DNA of 64,000 nucleotides from Escherichia phage DT571/2, in the sequence record NC_047749.1; one strand, written 5' to 3'. This document shows, piece after piece, positions 24,119-31,778 of this stretch. The position numbers and the translations under genes were made by a program. How positions within the stretch are numbered: the first letter of the stretch is position 1; the number at the start of each line of letters is the position of its first letter. The notes under the pieces are model-generated. The model was not told the origin of the DNA and ran no database searches. It was given only the letters and a program-made list of their open reading frames with translations.

Positions 24119-24993
24119 TGAGTAAATCCTGGGGAAAATTTATTGAAGAAGAGGAAGCTGAAATGGCTTCCCGTCGTAACCTAATGATTGTCGATGGAAC
24201 TAACTTAGGCTTTCGCTTCAAACATAATAATAGTAAGAAACCATTTGCCTCAAGTTATGTTTCCACTATTCAGTCTCTGGCAAAGTCTTATTCTGCTAGA
24301 ACTACAATAGTTTTAGGGGATAAGGGGAAATCTGTATTTCGTCTAGAACATCTACCAGAGTATAAAGGTAATCGTGATGAAAAGTACGCACAACGTACAG
24401 AAGAAGAGAAAGCGCTAGATGAGCAGTTCTTTGAATATTTGAAAGATGCTTTCGAGTTGTGTGAAACTACATTCCCAACCTTCACTATTCGTGGTGTAGA
24501 AGCTGATGATATGGCAGCTTATATTGTTAAGCTCATCGGGCATCTTTATGATCACGTTTGGTTGATTTCTACCGATGGTGACTGGGACACTTTATTAACA
24601 GATAAAGTTTCTCGTTTTTCTTTCACAACACGTCGTGAATATCATCTTCGTGATATGTATGAGCATCATAATGTTGACGATGTAGAGCAGTTTATTTCCC
24701 TGAAAGCAATTATGGGAGATCTAGGGGATAATATCCGGGGTGTTGAAGGTATTGGGGCAAAACGCGGGTATAACATTATTCGTGAATTCGGTAATGTTCT
24801 GGATATTATTGATCAGCTTCCACTACCTGGAAAACAGAAATATATACAGAATTTAAATGCTTCGGAAGAATTGCTCTACCGAAACCTAATTCTAGTTGAT
24901 TTACCTACCTACTGTGTGGATGCTATTGCTGCTGTGGGTCAAGACGTATTAGATAAGTTTACAAAAGATATTTTGGAGATTGCAGAACAATGA
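24118..24993 (+). CDS. D15: 5'-3' exonuclease / flap endonuclease (T5 D15-like, 291 aa)
   Basis: N-terminal MIVDGTNLGFR and downstream acidic clusters typical of FEN/5'-nuclease; 291 aa, same length as T5 D15 as I recall it. Confidence 0.85.
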   Translation: MSKSWGKFIEEEEAEMASRRNLMIVDGTNLGFRFKHNNSKKPFASSYVSTIQSLAKSYSARTTIVLGDKGKSVFRLEHLPEYKGNRDEKYAQRTEEEKALDEQFFEYLKDAFELCETTFPTFTIRGVEADDMAAYIVKLIGHLYDHVWLISTDGDWDTLLTDKVSRFSFTTRREYHLRDMYEHHNVDDVEQFISLKAIMGDLGDNIRGVEGIGAKRGYNIIREFGNVLDIIDQLPLPGKQKYIQNLNASEELLYRNLILVDLPTYCVDAIAAVGQDVLDKFTKDILEIAEQ

Positions 24994-25436
24994 TTAAAAT
25001 TAAGTTAACTCATCCAGATTGTATGCCTAAGATTGGCTCTGAAGATGCCGCAGGCATGGATCTGCGAGCATTCTTTGGTACTAACCCTGCTGCAGATTTA
25101 CGTGCTATTGCACCAGGCAAATCCTTAATGATTGACACCGGTGTCGCGGTAGAAATTCCGCGAGGTTGGTTCGGTTTGGTGGTTCCGCGTAGTTCTTTAG
25201 GAAAGCGTCATCTGATGATTGCAAATACCGCGGGGGTGATTGATTCAGACTATCGTGGTACTATTAAGATGAACCTTTATAACTACGGTTCTGAAATTCA
25301 AACTCTGGAGAATTTTGAAAGACTTTGCCAGTTAGTGGTACTACCGCACTACTCAACCCATAATTTTAAAATCGTTGACAAACTAGAGGAGACTGATCGT
25401 GGAGAAGGTGGATTTGGAAGCTCAGGAAGTAAGTAA
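24990..25436 (+). CDS. dut: dUTP pyrophosphatase
   Basis: dUTPase motifs AAGMDLRA, VPRSSLG, GVIDSDYRG. Confidence 0.85.
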   Translation: MIKIKLTHPDCMPKIGSEDAAGMDLRAFFGTNPAADLRAIAPGKSLMIDTGVAVEIPRGWFGLVVPRSSLGKRHLMIANTAGVIDSDYRGTIKMNLYNYGSEIQTLENFERLCQLVVLPHYSTHNFKIVDKLEETDRGEGGFGSSGSK

Positions 25437-25893: not shown

Positions 25894-28197
25894 TTATTTC
25901 GCTGCCTTCAGCGCGGCTATCTCTGCCTTCAAATCCTCGATTTGCTTATTGAGATACTGCACACAACCCATCAAATCCATAACGATCGGGTTTACATCCA
26001 CCGACGGCCTGTCGCGGGTCTTACCACCGATAATAGCGTTAGTCTCTGGGTCCACCTCCACATCGTACGTCTCTTCTCGATGTTTGATGTATTGAGGTGC
26101 AATCGCTTCAGCCTCCTCGGCAATTATGCCGAAGCGGACGCGCTCCTGCACATCGTCCTTATACACGTAGTTCACCATGCGCATTTGTTCAATACGTGCA
26201 ACCGCTTCTGTAACGTCTGCATTGACAATATCTTTCTTAAAGTCCCGCCCCGATGTGCCTTGCAAGGCAAGAACACCACCAGATGAAGGCCAGTTGATTG
26301 TAATGCCAGTGCCGTTTCCCTTCTCAAAATATTTATAGATCTGGTTACTATTGATATTAACCGAATCCCACATCGTGCGGAAATTACCAGCCGGGACTGA
26401 ATCTTTTGCGTTGTGTAGAACGAAAGACTTCACCGGACCGTCGGTAGTCGGGCGAATGGTTATATCACGGGCCCACACTACTCCGCCTGTTCCCGCTCCG
26501 GGGATCTCCACGACGGTATCTCGGTACGCGCCCGACGCGTCATATGATTGCAACTTAAAATTGCCCGAAGCGTCGTTAATCCCCATACGCCAGCGTACTT
26601 TATCGGCGGAATCCGCCCAACATACACCGTCAAAATCGGAGTTCACCGAGTTCACAACTATACTATTCGGTATAGTTAGTTTACCTGTTTCGTCAAAATC
26701 CAGATTCGCGCTTCTTTGTGTGGTACTGTTCGTTACGGAAATACGAGCAGAATAGTTACCGCCGATATCGGCACGGGCACAGAAACTAGCTTCAGCCTCA
26801 TTGGCGCCACTAATCTTGTACAATGAGAATATGTTACCACCTTGAGCAATTGTGCCGTCAGCTGGACGTGTCGCATCACCATTGATCACACTCCAAGACG
26901 TATTCGCCGCCACGAACCCGCCTGACGCTCGAATAACCCACACACCCATGAAGTTATTTGGACGCAACTCCGTTACGGTCCGACCATAGATCGCGCTGAC
27001 CCTCGAGGCGTCCAGGTTAATGATGCCGTAGGAGACCGCGCCGTTACTAACAGTTAGGTTGCTTGGCGTCCGATATTGCGAATCCGCGCCACCAGACCCA
27101 TGGAACGCGCCACTTTCACCGTTGATAATACTTGCGGACCCGCCGCCGTGTAATTCGACGCGGCCTGTGATGTTAGGTGCTCCTGATTCGTAGATATACC
27201 CATCGTTGCCACTTTGCCCGCCGTCCCCCCGGCAGAACAAGCCGAATATTGACCCAGGCTGAACACCATTACGGTCTGGCACTCGGAAGGTCGTTGTGCC
27301 GTCACCAGTAGAATACTTGCCGCGCTGATTTGGGTTAGCCAGCCAGGTAGCGTCACTAATTGGCGATAGCATTTGCGCATACGCCCAGAGTTCGGGCCAG
27401 TCAGCACGATTCAACAACTGACCATCACTCACCACCTCGTACGGCTGAATGTATGCGCGACTATCCCGCAGGTGAAAGTCACCTACCCCATAGTTCATAA
27501 CGCCATTCATGGTAGGTCCAACTGTACCAGTGTTAATCTTATTCTCTACCCAACGTTTGGTTACAGCATCGTAGTCCCCCACAGGGTCCCCAGCAAGAGG
27601 GGTGGACCCTTGTGGTCTTACAACGTCCCATAAAGCTTCTCTATTATTTACCCCGGTACCCCCTTGTTCAACCGGGAGTGCTAACCACTCATTCTCTGTA
27701 TCACTATAAACTCCCCAAGTACCATTATTTTGAATAGTTAATCTAGAATTCTTATCACCACTGTAGATTATGGTTTCTGTTTCGGACTCCTGACTAAATC
27801 TATCGAGTTCCAGTGCGGTTTTAGCCCCCTCTAGTGTAGAAGAACCAGTACCACCTTGAGCAATCGTAATAGCCTTAGTAAGCGCATTTAATTCTGTAAT
27901 ATCATTATTAGCACCTTTAGCAGCTTTACTATCTATGGTGATATTCATACTACCAAGAGCAGTATTGATATTCCCAATAGCCTCTACATTGTTCTGAATG
28001 GAACTATCAATACCAGTTAAACGAGTATTTAATTCTTCTTTATCTATAGTGTAGTTAGAGATTTGTAGGTATTTAGAAGTTAGTGCAACAGCACCAGCTT
28101 CTCCATCAACAGAGAAAACGCCTGCAACCGCAGCATCTCTGTTAACTACAACGTATGGCGCCATTGCGCCGGATTTAGGCATTAAATTACGTGACAT
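25894..28197 (-). CDS. Tail fibre protein with C-terminal intramolecular-chaperone (S74-like) domain; second L-shaped fibre protein (LtfB-like)
   Basis: 767 aa; C-terminus ...DVNPIVMDLMGCVQYLNKQIEDLKAEIAALKAAK resembles the auto-processing chaperone domain of tail fibres; shares an almost identical ~90-aa block with the 1039-aa fibre. Confidence 0.7.
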   Translation of the reverse strand: MSRNLMPKSGAMAPYVVVNRDAAVAGVFSVDGEAGAVALTSKYLQISNYTIDKEELNTRLTGIDSSIQNNVEAIGNINTALGSMNITIDSKAAKGANNDITELNALTKAITIAQGGTGSSTLEGAKTALELDRFSQESETETIIYSGDKNSRLTIQNNGTWGVYSDTENEWLALPVEQGGTGVNNREALWDVVRPQGSTPLAGDPVGDYDAVTKRWVENKINTGTVGPTMNGVMNYGVGDFHLRDSRAYIQPYEVVSDGQLLNRADWPELWAYAQMLSPISDATWLANPNQRGKYSTGDGTTTFRVPDRNGVQPGSIFGLFCRGDGGQSGNDGYIYESGAPNITGRVELHGGGSASIINGESGAFHGSGGADSQYRTPSNLTVSNGAVSYGIINLDASRVSAIYGRTVTELRPNNFMGVWVIRASGGFVAANTSWSVINGDATRPADGTIAQGGNIFSLYKISGANEAEASFCARADIGGNYSARISVTNSTTQRSANLDFDETGKLTIPNSIVVNSVNSDFDGVCWADSADKVRWRMGINDASGNFKLQSYDASGAYRDTVVEIPGAGTGGVVWARDITIRPTTDGPVKSFVLHNAKDSVPAGNFRTMWDSVNINSNQIYKYFEKGNGTGITINWPSSGGVLALQGTSGRDFKKDIVNADVTEAVARIEQMRMVNYVYKDDVQERVRFGIIAEEAEAIAPQYIKHREETYDVEVDPETNAIIGGKTRDRPSVDVNPIVMDLMGCVQYLNKQIEDLKAEIAALKAAK

Positions 28198-28215
28198 AGT
28201 ATTTCCTTAGTAAAT

Positions 28216-28231
28216 AGGGGCCGAAGCCCCT
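28216..28231 (-). promoter_or_regulatory. Intergenic GC hairpin with UUCG tetraloop between the two fibre genes
   Basis: On the - strand transcript: aggggc-uucg-gcccct; same hairpin sequence as the terminator at 20807. Confidence 0.4.
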
Positions 28232-28236
28232 TTGAA

Positions 28237-31200
28237 TTATTTAGCTTCGAGTTCAGTAATCTTGGCTTCCAGAGCCTCAACCTTATCCATCAAAGCGAGG
28301 ATAGCTTCGTGGTGGAGGGCTGCTGCAACACCGTAGGTGTCTACACCTTTAACGTCCGGGACTACCTCACCATCACGTAGATTCATGGAACCTGCATTGA
28401 ATATAGCATCCGGGAAGCGGTTCTCCACATCCTGAGCGATGAACCCGTAGTTCCTCTTAGAGTTATCCTGCTTGACACGCCACGATACACCCTTGATGGT
28501 ACGCATAGCGCCGAGAGGGTCCGGGATGCGTACAACATCTTCCTTGATGCGCTCGTCAGAAGTAGTGCTCCACCCACCCGGACATACCGCATTACCAGCC
28601 TGCATGAACTGGAAATACCTCGGAGTACTACCACTCACACTGGTCATTATGGTCATATCGCCATTACGTTCGGAGTATACTCGCCCGTACATGGCACCAC
28701 TTGGTGATACGAAGTCCAAAAATCCGGAGGTGTAACTACCACTACCTGTGATACGCACAATATTGCCTTTGGCAATCATATTGCCCGGTGTGACTAAGTC
28801 CCCGCTACTATTAAAGTCAAAGCTCCGAGTAACACCCAGAGTAGAGTTGTACACGGATATACGGGCAGCATACGTACCACCTATCGTGCCTACCATACGG
28901 AAATCTGCGGAACCTTCCAGCTGACCACCAACACGGTACTCACTAGTAACACGACCGCCAGTAACAGACGTTGTTGCAGGTGGCAGTGTGGCATCACCGT
29001 TAATCACAGACCACGACGTATTCGCAGCAACAAATCCGCCCGATGCACGAATCACCCAAACGCCTACGAATGAGTTAGGTCTTACCTCGGAAGCACGCCC
29101 ATAAGCCGCATTGACTCTAGATGCCCTGAATGTGTATGTGTTATATCTTGCGTTACTCCCCTCTGCGTTGCTAAGACTAATTGCAGAAGTTCCGTTATTA
29201 GAAGATGCAAATGCACCTGACGGAGCTCCTGCGAGATAACTATAAGAAGTAAAATCCCCTGAGATATCAGGGAGGCCGTTTTCAAGAATACCGCCATAAT
29301 TGCCGCCCGCATCACCACGCCCGAACAACCCCTTGATTGAACCTGTTTGAGTACCGTTACGGTCTGGCACGCGGAAAGTAGTAGAGCCATCACCTGTTGA
29401 ATACTGGTGTCTGTTCCAAGGGTCAGCAAGCCAATCAGCATCAGAAATAGGGGAAAGCATTTGAGCATAAGCCCACAACTCGGGCCAGTCAGCCCTATTA
29501 AGAAGTTGTCCATCAGAAACGACTTCATATGGTTGAATATACGCACGACTATCACGAAGGTGGAAATCACCTACACCATAGTTCATGACACCATTCATTG
29601 TTGGCCCTACTGTACCGGTGTTAATCTTATTCTCTACCCAACGCTTAGTAACAGCATCGTAGTCGCCAACAGGATCACCAGCCAGCGGCGTTGAACCAAC
29701 GGGTCGCACGTTAAGCCATGCGGCAGCACGGTCTGCCAAATCCGAAAGGTTATTAGCTTTTAATAAGTAATCAGTATCTGACTGAGTTTTAGCGTCTGCT
29801 AAAGCAGAATCAACCTCCATCTTAGTATACGTGGTAGCAATATCAGCCTTATCTGCTAAAGCAGAATCAACCTCCATCTTAGTATACGTGGTAGCAATAT
29901 CAGCCTTATCTGCTAAAGCAGAATCAACCTCCGTAGTACTATATAACTCGAGGGCTATACGGGCGTCTTCTTTAGTTGTTGCACCAGTACCGCCTTGATT
30001 AATACTAACAGTACCTTGTAGTGAGGTATCAATTTCAACGTTACCAGTTATATCATCTGGAGAGATACCATTAACTGTCACAACATAAGGAATCTGATCT
30101 TTAATAACGCCAGCATCTTCTTCGCCTTTAGTTGGTGCACGGAATGCCTGTCCTTGCATCATATCTGGTAGACGGAAGGTTGTAGAGCCATCACCCGTAG
30201 AGAAGTAAAGAGACGCACCGGCTTGCCATTCAGCTTCTGGTACAGAAGGAATTAAGCCAGCCTCAATAGCCTCCCAAGTATCTGGATAGTCTGCACGAAG
30301 AACTTCACGACCATCAGCAGGAAGAACACCAGGGTAGCCAACACCTGAATCTTTATCATAAGGGAACCAAGTAACTTCACCCAGCCATAAAGAGGGGTTA
30401 CCACCAGGAAGGGTGATCTGTACGTTACCCCCATCATCTGCACGAACGTTATTAACAGAAACTAACTTTTGCTCTGTTTCTACTAACTCTAATACTGGAG
30501 TCTCAGCAGTTCCAGCTACTTTGTACCACCCATATTTTGAGTTAGTTTGGTTCCAGACTAGAACCTTTTCGTCTAGCACACGGTTTACAACATCGGCATC
30601 AGCTTCTGCTTTAGTCTTATAAACTTTGATAAAACCAGAAATATCTACTTTATCAAGTTTACTATCAACAATCTGAGTTGCACGATCTGCCTCAGCTTTA
30701 GCACGATCTGCCTCAGTAGTAGCATCGATAGCTTTATCACCGGCTTCAGTAGCAGAACCAGCAGCATTAGTTTCAGAAATCTTAGCGTTTAGTTCTGATT
30801 GCCTTGCAGCAGCAGCATGTTCGCCAGCAGTGGTAGCAGCAGCATCAGCTCCATCTTTAGCTGTTTCAGCACCAGTCTTAGCAGCTTCTGCGGCTATTTG
30901 AGCTTGTTGCGCAGCTGTTTTAGCTTGTTCAGCTAGTAAACGACTTTGTTCAGCATTCTGCGCTGCCAATTCTGCAGAGTCTCTAAATCCCTCTGATTCT
31001 TGCGCAGAAGCTGCAGAATTATCTGCACTGCTTTGGGCTAAACCCGCCTGTCTTTCTGACTCAGTAGCAGAGGCAGCAGATTGAGTTGCTGAAGCTTCGG
31101 AAGCACCAGCATGAATACCCGCCTGAATCTCTGAATCTTTAGCGTTATTTTCAGAGTCCTTAGCTGCTATTTCAGAACCTCTAGCAGCAGCAGCGGATCC

Positions 31201-31356
31201 TGCAGAGGCCTCTACAGCAGCAGTTAATTCACCAGCAGTAATAGAACTAATAGAATTACCTAAAACTACTGTATATTTAGGATACTTACTAGCAGTAGTT
31301 GTAGTGTCATCTATGTTCAGAATCTGCTGTACAATAATTTTAGTTTTAAGTGCCAT
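28237..31356 (-). CDS. L-shaped tail fibre protein (pb1/LtfA-like) with C-terminal chaperone domain
   Basis: 1039 aa; Ala-rich coiled-coil N-terminal region; 19-aa tandem repeats; C-terminus ...ILALMDKVEALEAKITELEAK chaperone-like; adjacent to the collar gene. Confidence 0.75.
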   Translation of the reverse strand: MALKTKIIVQQILNIDDTTTTASKYPKYTVVLGNSISSITAGELTAAVEASAGSAAAARGSEIAAKDSENNAKDSEIQAGIHAGASEASATQSAASATESERQAGLAQSSADNSAASAQESEGFRDSAELAAQNAEQSRLLAEQAKTAAQQAQIAAEAAKTGAETAKDGADAAATTAGEHAAAARQSELNAKISETNAAGSATEAGDKAIDATTEADRAKAEADRATQIVDSKLDKVDISGFIKVYKTKAEADADVVNRVLDEKVLVWNQTNSKYGWYKVAGTAETPVLELVETEQKLVSVNNVRADDGGNVQITLPGGNPSLWLGEVTWFPYDKDSGVGYPGVLPADGREVLRADYPDTWEAIEAGLIPSVPEAEWQAGASLYFSTGDGSTTFRLPDMMQGQAFRAPTKGEEDAGVIKDQIPYVVTVNGISPDDITGNVEIDTSLQGTVSINQGGTGATTKEDARIALELYSTTEVDSALADKADIATTYTKMEVDSALADKADIATTYTKMEVDSALADAKTQSDTDYLLKANNLSDLADRAAAWLNVRPVGSTPLAGDPVGDYDAVTKRWVENKINTGTVGPTMNGVMNYGVGDFHLRDSRAYIQPYEVVSDGQLLNRADWPELWAYAQMLSPISDADWLADPWNRHQYSTGDGSTTFRVPDRNGTQTGSIKGLFGRGDAGGNYGGILENGLPDISGDFTSYSYLAGAPSGAFASSNNGTSAISLSNAEGSNARYNTYTFRASRVNAAYGRASEVRPNSFVGVWVIRASGGFVAANTSWSVINGDATLPPATTSVTGGRVTSEYRVGGQLEGSADFRMVGTIGGTYAARISVYNSTLGVTRSFDFNSSGDLVTPGNMIAKGNIVRITGSGSYTSGFLDFVSPSGAMYGRVYSERNGDMTIMTSVSGSTPRYFQFMQAGNAVCPGGWSTTSDERIKEDVVRIPDPLGAMRTIKGVSWRVKQDNSKRNYGFIAQDVENRFPDAIFNAGSMNLRDGEVVPDVKGVDTYGVAAALHHEAILALMDKVEALEAKITELEAK
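29795..29941. repeat. 57-bp tandem repeat (about 2.6 copies) inside the tail-fibre gene
   Basis: Unit tctgctaaagcagaatcaacctccatcttagtatacgtggtagcaatatcagccttatc starts at 29795, 29852 and 29909; encodes repeated TTYTKMEVDSALADKADIA. Confidence 0.85.
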
Positions 31357-31778
31357 TATTGAGTTACTCCATCGCTGATGTATACTTTACCTTCCATAAT
31401 ACGGAAAGAACTGACTTCAGAGCCAATTACATCACGAGTCATTAGGATATCATAATAACCCGCAAAGCGTTGTCTAGGGTTATACTTATCACGTTCTTTA
31501 GATGCTTTTTCACCAATATTAGTAACGTCTGCAACGGAAAGACTAATTGCAGCAGCACCTTGAGCAGCATCAATAATACTAGTAGTAAAAGATGCCAAAG
31601 TTTCCGCGTTCTCGTCTAAGCTAGACTTAATAGTTCCACGAAGTGAATAACCTGCTAGATTAACAGGTGTTTCAGAAGGAGGGTATACACTATCATCAAC
31701 ATCCATAAATTGCATGATAAGACCATAAGGCACTTTCTCATCAACAACAATATCAATTACTCTATTTTCAGTACTCAT
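31356..31778 (-). CDS. Tail collar/fibre-attachment protein (T5 p132-like, 140 aa)
   Basis: Position between pb4-like and tail-fibre genes; 140 aa as for T5 p132 (from memory). Confidence 0.5.

Follow-up and report, generated by a model that had tools for sequence, protein, structure and literature searches.

An identical peptide in two tail fibre genes

How can two neighbouring genes of one phage encode exactly the same stretch of protein in clearly different DNA? This question is raised by the lateral tail fibre locus of Escherichia phage DT571/2, which we analysed in a 64,000-nucleotide (nt) stretch of sequence record NC_047749.1, referred to here as the window. Megablast assigns the locus to the DT57C/DT571-2 group of Tequintavirus. 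Its two fibre genes are consecutive on the minus strand, with the open reading frame (ORF) ltfA (28237-31356) encoding lateral tail fibre protein A of 1039 amino acids (aa) and ltfB (25894-28197) encoding lateral tail fibre protein B of 767 aa, the length published for LtfB of DT571/2 (PMC4728585). The two proteins share a block of 87 residues. We favour, with a probability of roughly 70%, the view that this block is a strongly conserved junction peptide and that its two copies in the mosaic fibre locus are xenologous alleles with saturated synonymous sites. What we observe is ordinary tail fibre mosaicism in an already published locus and not deliberate recoding; an identical protein in different DNA needs no special mechanism when a genome carries two alleles of a constrained junction peptide that differ in their ancestry.

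By aligning the proteins locally while tracking their codons, and by exact string search, we placed the block at aa 554-640 of LtfA (copy A, 29437-29697, minus strand) and aa 197-283 of LtfB (copy B, 27349-27609, minus strand). The peptide, GSTPLAG...SPISDA, is 100% identical in the two proteins, with zero amino acid replacements. A preliminary description of this DNA had reported a shared block of about 90 aa, identical in protein and different in DNA, at 27.37-27.64 and 29.38-29.65 kb; the block is indeed there and the region is right, although the positions were 20-50 nt off. The 88-residue string it gave is exact in LtfA but not in LtfB, where the residue just before the first glycine of the block is Q instead of V. 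At the DNA level the copies agree at 207 of 261 positions, and this identity of 79.3% falls within the 75-80% estimated earlier. The 54 differences are distributed 6/2/46 over first, second and third codon positions, so that the earlier remark on third positions also held. Among the 81 degenerate codons 48 differ between the copies, which share no identical run longer than 26 nt. Neither substantial amino acid divergence nor nucleotide identity near 100% was found in the codon alignment. The same pair was recovered independently by a repeat search, as a 278-nt direct repeat of 79% identity with a spacing of 2088 nt, in frame.

We also identified a second, shorter block of 26 aa, GVWVIRASGGFVAANTSWSVINGDAT, at aa 765-790 of LtfA (28987-29064, minus strand) and aa 418-443 of LtfB (26869-26946, minus strand). 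It behaves like the first, being identical in all 26 residues with a DNA identity of 79.5%.

Divergence of the copies matches independent codon choice

We first considered whether the DNA of the two copies differs by more than chance. Comparison of nonsynonymous and synonymous rates (dN/dS) confirmed the absence of replacements, but the Nei-Gojobori proportion of synonymous differences (pS) is 0.77, which lies above the Jukes-Cantor limit; the synonymous sites are saturated, leaving dS and the ratio omega undefined. Eight path steps counted as nonsynonymous by this method are an artefact of six codon pairs that are two synonymous steps apart (two Ser, TCT/AGT, three Leu and one Arg). In place of the ratio we used a codon-randomisation test, in which both copies were drawn independently from the codon usage of the 37 long ORFs of the window in 20,000 draws. 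The simulated nucleotide identity was 0.790 ± 0.02, against 0.793 observed, and identical degenerate codons numbered 33 of 81, against 32.7 ± 4.3 expected (z = 0.07). The roughly 79% identity is the floor set by the shared peptide, and the synonymous sites are randomised, not anti-correlated. As the identity equals the random-codon expectation, the proposal that the block had been synonymously recoded fails.

The same test bears on the idea that selection against deletion between direct repeats drove the synonymous divergence, or filtered for junction copies with dissimilar DNA. No excess of DNA divergence between the block copies, and no shortening of their identical runs, was found by codon randomisation. 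The divergence equals the random expectation without exceeding it, and the longest identical run of 26 nt, compared with a simulated median of 17, lies in the upper tail (P(>=26) = 0.06), the opposite of a minimised run. An even spacing of differences as a design against recombination was likewise ruled out, since the longest run exceeds the simulated median. In the alignable stretches of ltfA and ltfB outside the blocks, third-position identity is 0.2-0.5 throughout, and the rest of the module is as saturated as the block itself.

The peptide is a family consensus

Using tblastn we found the block in 240 phage records, nearly always as one copy per genome, and in 35 IMG/VR loci. Its carriers include T5-like phages, phages of 42-45 kb (PGT2, phiKT, Sloth and Envy), phages of 68-72 kb and phiEco32-like phages of 76-78 kb. 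The window peptide is one residue, V16, away from the consensus of the 25 homologues of at least 90% identity, and a 53-aa core of the block is nearly invariant in those 25 although their synonymous sites are saturated. The median number of amino acid differences is about 7 in the 232 homologue pairs whose synonymous sites are saturated. Saturated, unrelated lineages nevertheless come close to the window peptide, Stokescottia being one residue off and fp01 two.

The four copies in the window and in DT57C all encode the same 87 residues. The A copies of the two phages are separated by 11 synonymous differences, the A and B copies by differences at 54-56 sites, and the B copies by a single nucleotide. 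Purifying selection on the peptide, one of the forces first invoked for this block, is well borne out by these figures. Judged from the sequences, the protein identity of the block is only moderately unusual, and reflects strong purifying selection across the family on a consensus sequence.

The two copies differ in composition and nearest relatives

The G+C content at third codon positions (GC3) of copy A is 0.34, close to the mean of 0.31 for the backbone ORFs; 71% of backbone windows of 87 codons have a value of 0.34 or less. Copy B has a GC3 of 0.52, which is reached by only 2.5% of these backbone windows. The third-position differences are directional, with A or T in copy A and G or C in copy B in 25 cases and the reverse in 10 (p = 0.017). 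Along ltfB, GC3 is 0.20-0.32 up to about codon 180, the start of the module, and rises abruptly to 0.42-0.65 there. Overall GC climbs from 0.39 to 0.51 across the locus. We also observed that between 25600 and 29800 GC is 0.47-0.55 over the fibre genes and 0.35-0.42 in the flanking backbone, and that in both genes GC3 grows in the 3' direction to reach 0.57-0.65.

The nearest DNA relatives of the copies differ as well. Copy A is 85-93% identical to two T5-like loci (L018 and L023) over block nt 30-210, after which identity drops to 0.55. The ltfB gene, compared with the DNA of Sloth and Envy, siphoviruses of 45 kb with a locus GC of 0.53-0.55, is 0.70-0.80 identical over block nt 0-210, 0.90-1.00 identical from nt 210 to about nt 690, where the second block lies, and about 0.45 identical thereafter. 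This Sloth/Envy-like segment of about 480 nt (26919-27399, minus strand) is 90-100% identical to the tail fibre genes of loci L009 and L010. It is limited on one side by the 3' end of block 1 and on the other by block 2, whose copy in ltfB forms the distal edge of the segment. In protein, LtfB shares 91% identity with Sloth and 61% with LtfA over the 160 residues that follow the block. Further out the two window proteins share 29% identity, whereas LtfB is 60% identical to locus L011 and LtfA 46% to phiKT. Other breaks fall in or at the first block: ltfA of the window and of DT57C are 100% identical up to codon 600, in the middle of the block, and decay beyond it, and homology of ltfB to phages outside the T5 group begins exactly at the first base of the block (blastn, query position 92). 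Both conserved blocks thus coincide with mosaic breakpoints, and the Sloth/Envy-like segment suggests that a T5-like phage exchanged DNA fairly recently with siphoviruses of an unrelated group.

In the tail fibre mosaics of P2, Mu, P1, lambda and the T-even phages, short conserved segments flank variable receptor-binding segments at recombination breakpoints. The breakpoints at blocks 1 and 2 follow the same pattern. Unlike in those mosaics, a single genome here has two copies of the junction, one in each of two fibre genes that are expressed together, and because of this the junction also mediates fusion deletions within the genome.

An obvious alternative, also raised in the preliminary description, is an ancient tandem duplication in a T5-like ancestor, after which purifying selection froze the peptide while the synonymous sites saturated. 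The genes are adjacent, on the same strand and, at a spacing of 2088 nt, in the same frame; the LtfA and LtfB modules share their domain order, and the blocks are 100% identical in protein down to the non-consensus V16, all of which a duplication would explain. Paralogues that arose in place should share their composition and be each other's closest relatives, and this is not what we found. The GC3 values of 0.34 and 0.52, the directional differences and the GC3 jump at the start of the ltfB module argue against it, as does the proximal module of LtfB, which is 91% identical to Sloth-type phages and 61% to LtfA. DNA kinship to other T5-like phages is kept by copy A and not by copy B, the block is single-copy in most T5-like phages, and a published phylogeny prefers recombination over duplication as the origin of ltfA and ltfB (PMC10644984). 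We therefore regard duplication as unlikely. Because the copies differ in composition and in nearest DNA relatives, and because their flanking modules are closer to those of other phages, they are better read as xenologs.

Recombination between the copies

Recombination between ltfA and ltfB is known to yield LtfAB fusion deletions (Golomidova et al. 2016, PMC4728585). The deletion published for DT571/2, 71916-74004, matches the 2088-nt spacing of the blocks in the window, and the resulting fusion in DT571/2-ABF was described as LtfA aa 1-663 joined to LtfB aa 288-767 (PMC4728585). The ltfA part of DT571/2-ABF agrees with the window in all but 1 of 1562 nt, and its ltfB part differs only at sites of the hybrid block. 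Within that block the informative sites are all A-type up to nt 111 and all B-type from nt 123, with no interleaving. The crossover lies inside the block, in an 11-nt stretch that is identical in both copies, ATGAACTATGG (29576-29586 in copy A and 27488-27498 in copy B, minus strand). An identity of 79% therefore does not prevent in-frame fusion. The paper on DT57C and DT571/2 (PMC4728585) contains neither figures for synonymous saturation nor the contrast in composition and ancestry between the copies, and the ABF crossover is not assigned to the block there.

For a second fusion, in DT530(1) (KU236381), we used DT57C as a proxy for the DT530 parent. The LtfAB junction maps approximately to the second block, at about nt 2341-2345 of LtfA, where A-type and B-type sequence overlap by only about 5 nt. 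The longest exact runs between the A and B copies in DT57C are 26, 15 and 14 nt. Given such short overlaps and runs, the identical sequences between which recombination was reported may have been very short.

We also observed a perfect tandem repeat about 100 nt upstream of copy A. It consists of 2.4 copies of a 57-bp unit with 100% matches, encodes a 19-aa motif, VDSALADKADIATTYTKME, and occupies aa 476-521 of LtfA (29795-29932, minus strand). Its DNA is 100% identical from copy to copy, unlike that of the saturated block. The motif has been described before (PMC4728585), and the published ABF mutant has one additional copy of it. That a perfect 57-bp tandem repeat is tolerated here shows that there is no general avoidance of repeats in ltfA.

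These results complete the case on selection against deletion, which the preliminary description had offered as its other explanation. In-frame A/B deletions do occur, and in DT530(1) and DT571/2-ABF they narrow or cripple the host range (PMC4728585). No two-copy phage with DNA-similar blocks was seen among the DT57C group and Kenya-K38/K45, with 10 further two-place records not inspected. The block copies of Kenya-K38/K45 are identical at 158 of 261 nt; being 62% identical in protein, they are uninformative on whether protein-identical pairs always diverge in DNA. The tolerated tandem repeat and the use by ABF of an 11-nt stretch inside the block stand against such selection, as do the random level of divergence, the preserved 26-nt run and the equally saturated module, and we think it quite unlikely that selection of this kind shaped or sorted the copies. 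The locus would lend itself well to measuring how the divergence of repeats governs the rate of deletion in a lytic phage.

A proposed junction of exchangeable receptor-binding modules

Under the xenologous reading, many unrelated enterobacterial phages exchange a receptor-binding module of which the 87-aa block would be the N-terminal junction, held under strong constraint. The module would run from this junction, with a collar-like domain, through a variable part, a second conserved strand block and a distal binding domain to an S74 chaperone. LtfA and LtfB would each hold one such module, put together in recombination events of its own and drawn from different phage lineages, and their junction DNA would consist of xenologous alleles between which synonymous sites had already reached saturation. 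The protein identity would then arise from both copies sitting on the family consensus under strong purifying selection. Between phages the conserved blocks would act as swap sites for pieces of the module, while within one genome rare in-frame crossovers at the blocks, 2088 nt apart, would collapse the two-fibre locus to a single LtfAB fibre. Among the elements of this model, the degree of identity, the saturation, the contrast in composition and the places of the mosaic breakpoints and of the crossover were observed or computed; we infer the direction and order of the acquisitions. Useful for the engineering and classification of T5-like phages is that natural swaps of receptor-binding pieces took place at the 3' end of block 1 and at block 2, and that these junctions still allow in-frame A/B fusion at 79% identity.

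From sequence profiles and a structural model we further infer that the block may serve as a trimer collar or adaptor where the receptor-binding module begins. The consensus of the Pfam Collar family PF07484 resembles the block motif DGQ-LL-RADWPELW...STGDG-TTFRVPD, and remote homologues found by protein search carry precomputed PF07484 assignments. A profile of the region matches 9cuy, a short tail fibre of solved structure (E = 4e-10); most of this match lies downstream of the block, and the alignment of the canonical collar strand is weak. No solved homologue covering the block was found, and the deposited model of DT57C LtfA holds the N-terminus only (PMC10713586). A third, more divergent collar-like motif, PGVLPADGREVLRADYPDTWEA...STGDGSTTFRLPD, is present at aa 342-400 of LtfA (30157-30333, minus strand), within the region that resembles phiEco32 gp14. 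The 38-nt core of this motif (30164-30201) and the corresponding stretch that follows copy A of the block share 82% identity.

Several observations weigh against the model as a whole or in part. With respect to the collar, PF07484 stays below its gathering cut-off of 24 both in the block region of LtfB (18.2 bits) and at aa 385-400 of LtfA (23.1-23.5 bits). An AlphaFold2 (AF2) monomer model from a 30-sequence alignment has a mean pLDDT, the per-residue confidence score, of 63 and is confident only at aa 236-315 of LtfB, and a Foldseek search against the PDB gave no significant match, the best being T4 gp12 entries with E = 0.025-0.4. With respect to ancestry, saturation removes the signal that would separate a very old in-place duplicate from an imported allele within the block; the argument for xenologs rests on composition and on the flanking segments. 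Every relative of copy B is at the identity floor over block nt 0-210, and a distant-mode blastn search of 50,697 phage records and the IMG/VR loci returned no DNA donor above that floor for this part. Finally, zero amino acid differences is the extreme of the 232 saturated pairs, reached only by A/B pairs, and the non-consensus V16 is common to both copies. In view of these two points, some pressure to keep the two peptides alike may act within the phage, or the first 200 nt or so of the block may go back to an old common source.

Taken further, such a pressure could mean that both collars must be identical in protein within the virion, owing to a shared partner or assembly step, with the peptides co-evolving while the DNA drifts. 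The position of the pair at the extreme of the homologue distribution, the shared V16 and the identity of all four copies in two phages are what this would predict. In Kenya-K38, a T5-like phage with the same LtfA/LtfB layout as the window, the two blocks are only 54/87 aa (62%) identical, and a two-fibre design therefore does not require identical blocks. In addition the peptide is simply the family consensus, and gene conversion would have homogenised the DNA too. We consider a need for identical collars highly improbable. A combined view, in which two-fibre loci persist only with DNA-dissimilar junctions, through a selective filter on saturated xenologous alleles, and protein identity reflects a need for interchangeable collars in the DT57C group, seems quite improbable to us. 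The fibre genes of Kenya-K38 (OQ291035, 3332-8772) are annotated in fragments, as long tail fiber, chaperone of endosialidase and tail collar domain protein; since tblastn aligns LtfA and LtfB across the annotation gaps, its two fibre genes are probably split by frameshifts or sequencing errors.

Relation to branched fibres of other phages

The preliminary description had also suggested a branched arrangement of two fibres, and this is the published model for this very locus, in which the relatedness of ltfA and ltfB was described together with the branched fibre of DT57C and DT571/2 (Golomidova et al. 2016, PMC4728585). Genetic evidence indicates that LtfB is attached to the virion via LtfA (PMC4728585). 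In DT57C the structure of the LtfA N-terminus has been solved by cryo-electron microscopy (cryo-EM) (Ayala et al. 2023, PMC10713586); only this part of LtfA was resolved, with no density for LtfB at the tail core.

A direct comparison with DT57C, another point of the preliminary description, confirmed that the two phages have the same type of locus. The ltfB genes are about 100% identical except at codons 61-90, and the first 600 codons of ltfA are 97-100% identical, a mosaic patch aside. This patch covers codons 61-120 of ltfA (31000-31180), which are 72-82% identical in DNA, in N-terminal surroundings of 99-100%. The patch in ltfB, at codons 61-90 (27930-28015), is 64% identical in DNA, and here LtfB is 21 codons shorter than in DT57C (767 vs 788 aa). 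The C-terminal chaperones of the two DT57C fibres are 53-87% identical to each other, whereas those of the window share only 20-27% in the last 100 aa.

A more distant parallel is the branched fibre of phiEco32, formed by gp14 and gp15. By tblastn, aa 223-471 of LtfA are 42-44% identical to the upstream fibre gene of phiEco32-type loci (L029-L032), and LtfB can be aligned over its full length to the downstream gene at 35-37% (37% for LtfB 1-763 against L029). The middle region of LtfA is thus homologous to gp14 and LtfB to gp15, the proposed contact between the two fibres. Of the two genes in these phiEco32-type loci, the gp15-like downstream one alone has the block (69% identity over aa 8-87), whereas in the window both genes have it. 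As the match to LtfA is confined to aa 223-471, the phiEco32-type upstream gene appears to be without the module, and LtfA of the window would have gained a full module of its own. Two phiEco32-like phages, EK010 and SDYTW1-F1-2-2_3, have block matches at two places each by tblastn count, in loci that were not inspected.

Domain layout and neighbouring genes

LtfA consists, in order, of a T5-pb1-like N-terminus, the phiEco32-gp14-like region, the 19-aa repeats, the receptor-binding module and the S74 chaperone. LtfB has a gp15-like N-terminus followed by the receptor-binding module and the S74 chaperone. The N-terminus of LtfA is of the T5-pb1/DT57C type, which inserts into the LtfC collar, and its codons 1-60 are 99-100% identical to DT57C ltfA. 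Residues 1-229 correspond to the PHROG tail fibre families phrog_5481 and phrog_24369, and LtfB matches phrog_6921 over its full length (E = 2e-292).

Both fibres end in chaperone-type domains, as had been noted from the sequence. The intramolecular chaperone PF13884 (Peptidase_S74) was found at aa 933-984 of LtfA (28405-28560, minus strand, E = 1e-10) and aa 650-703 of LtfB (26089-26250, minus strand, E = 2.2e-10), with 42.2 and 41.1 bits respectively, above the Pfam gathering threshold of 22. The same endosialidase-type chaperone is present in pb1 of T5. Autocleavage sites have been predicted for the locus (PMC4728585).

The two genes lie between ltfC and dut, and a flap endonuclease gene is also nearby. 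The ORF of ltfC (31356-31778, minus strand) encodes the 140-aa collar protein that attaches the L-shaped fibre, identified by comparison with DT57C and by PHROG. The dut ORF (24990-25436) is on the strand opposite to ltfA and ltfB. The annotated order ltfC/ltfA/ltfB/dut in DT57C is identical to that of the window. Imperfect 21-nt periodic repeats with 78% matches are present both in the Ala/Glu-rich coiled-coil part of ltfA (30676-30729) and near the 5' end of ltfB (27942-27981).

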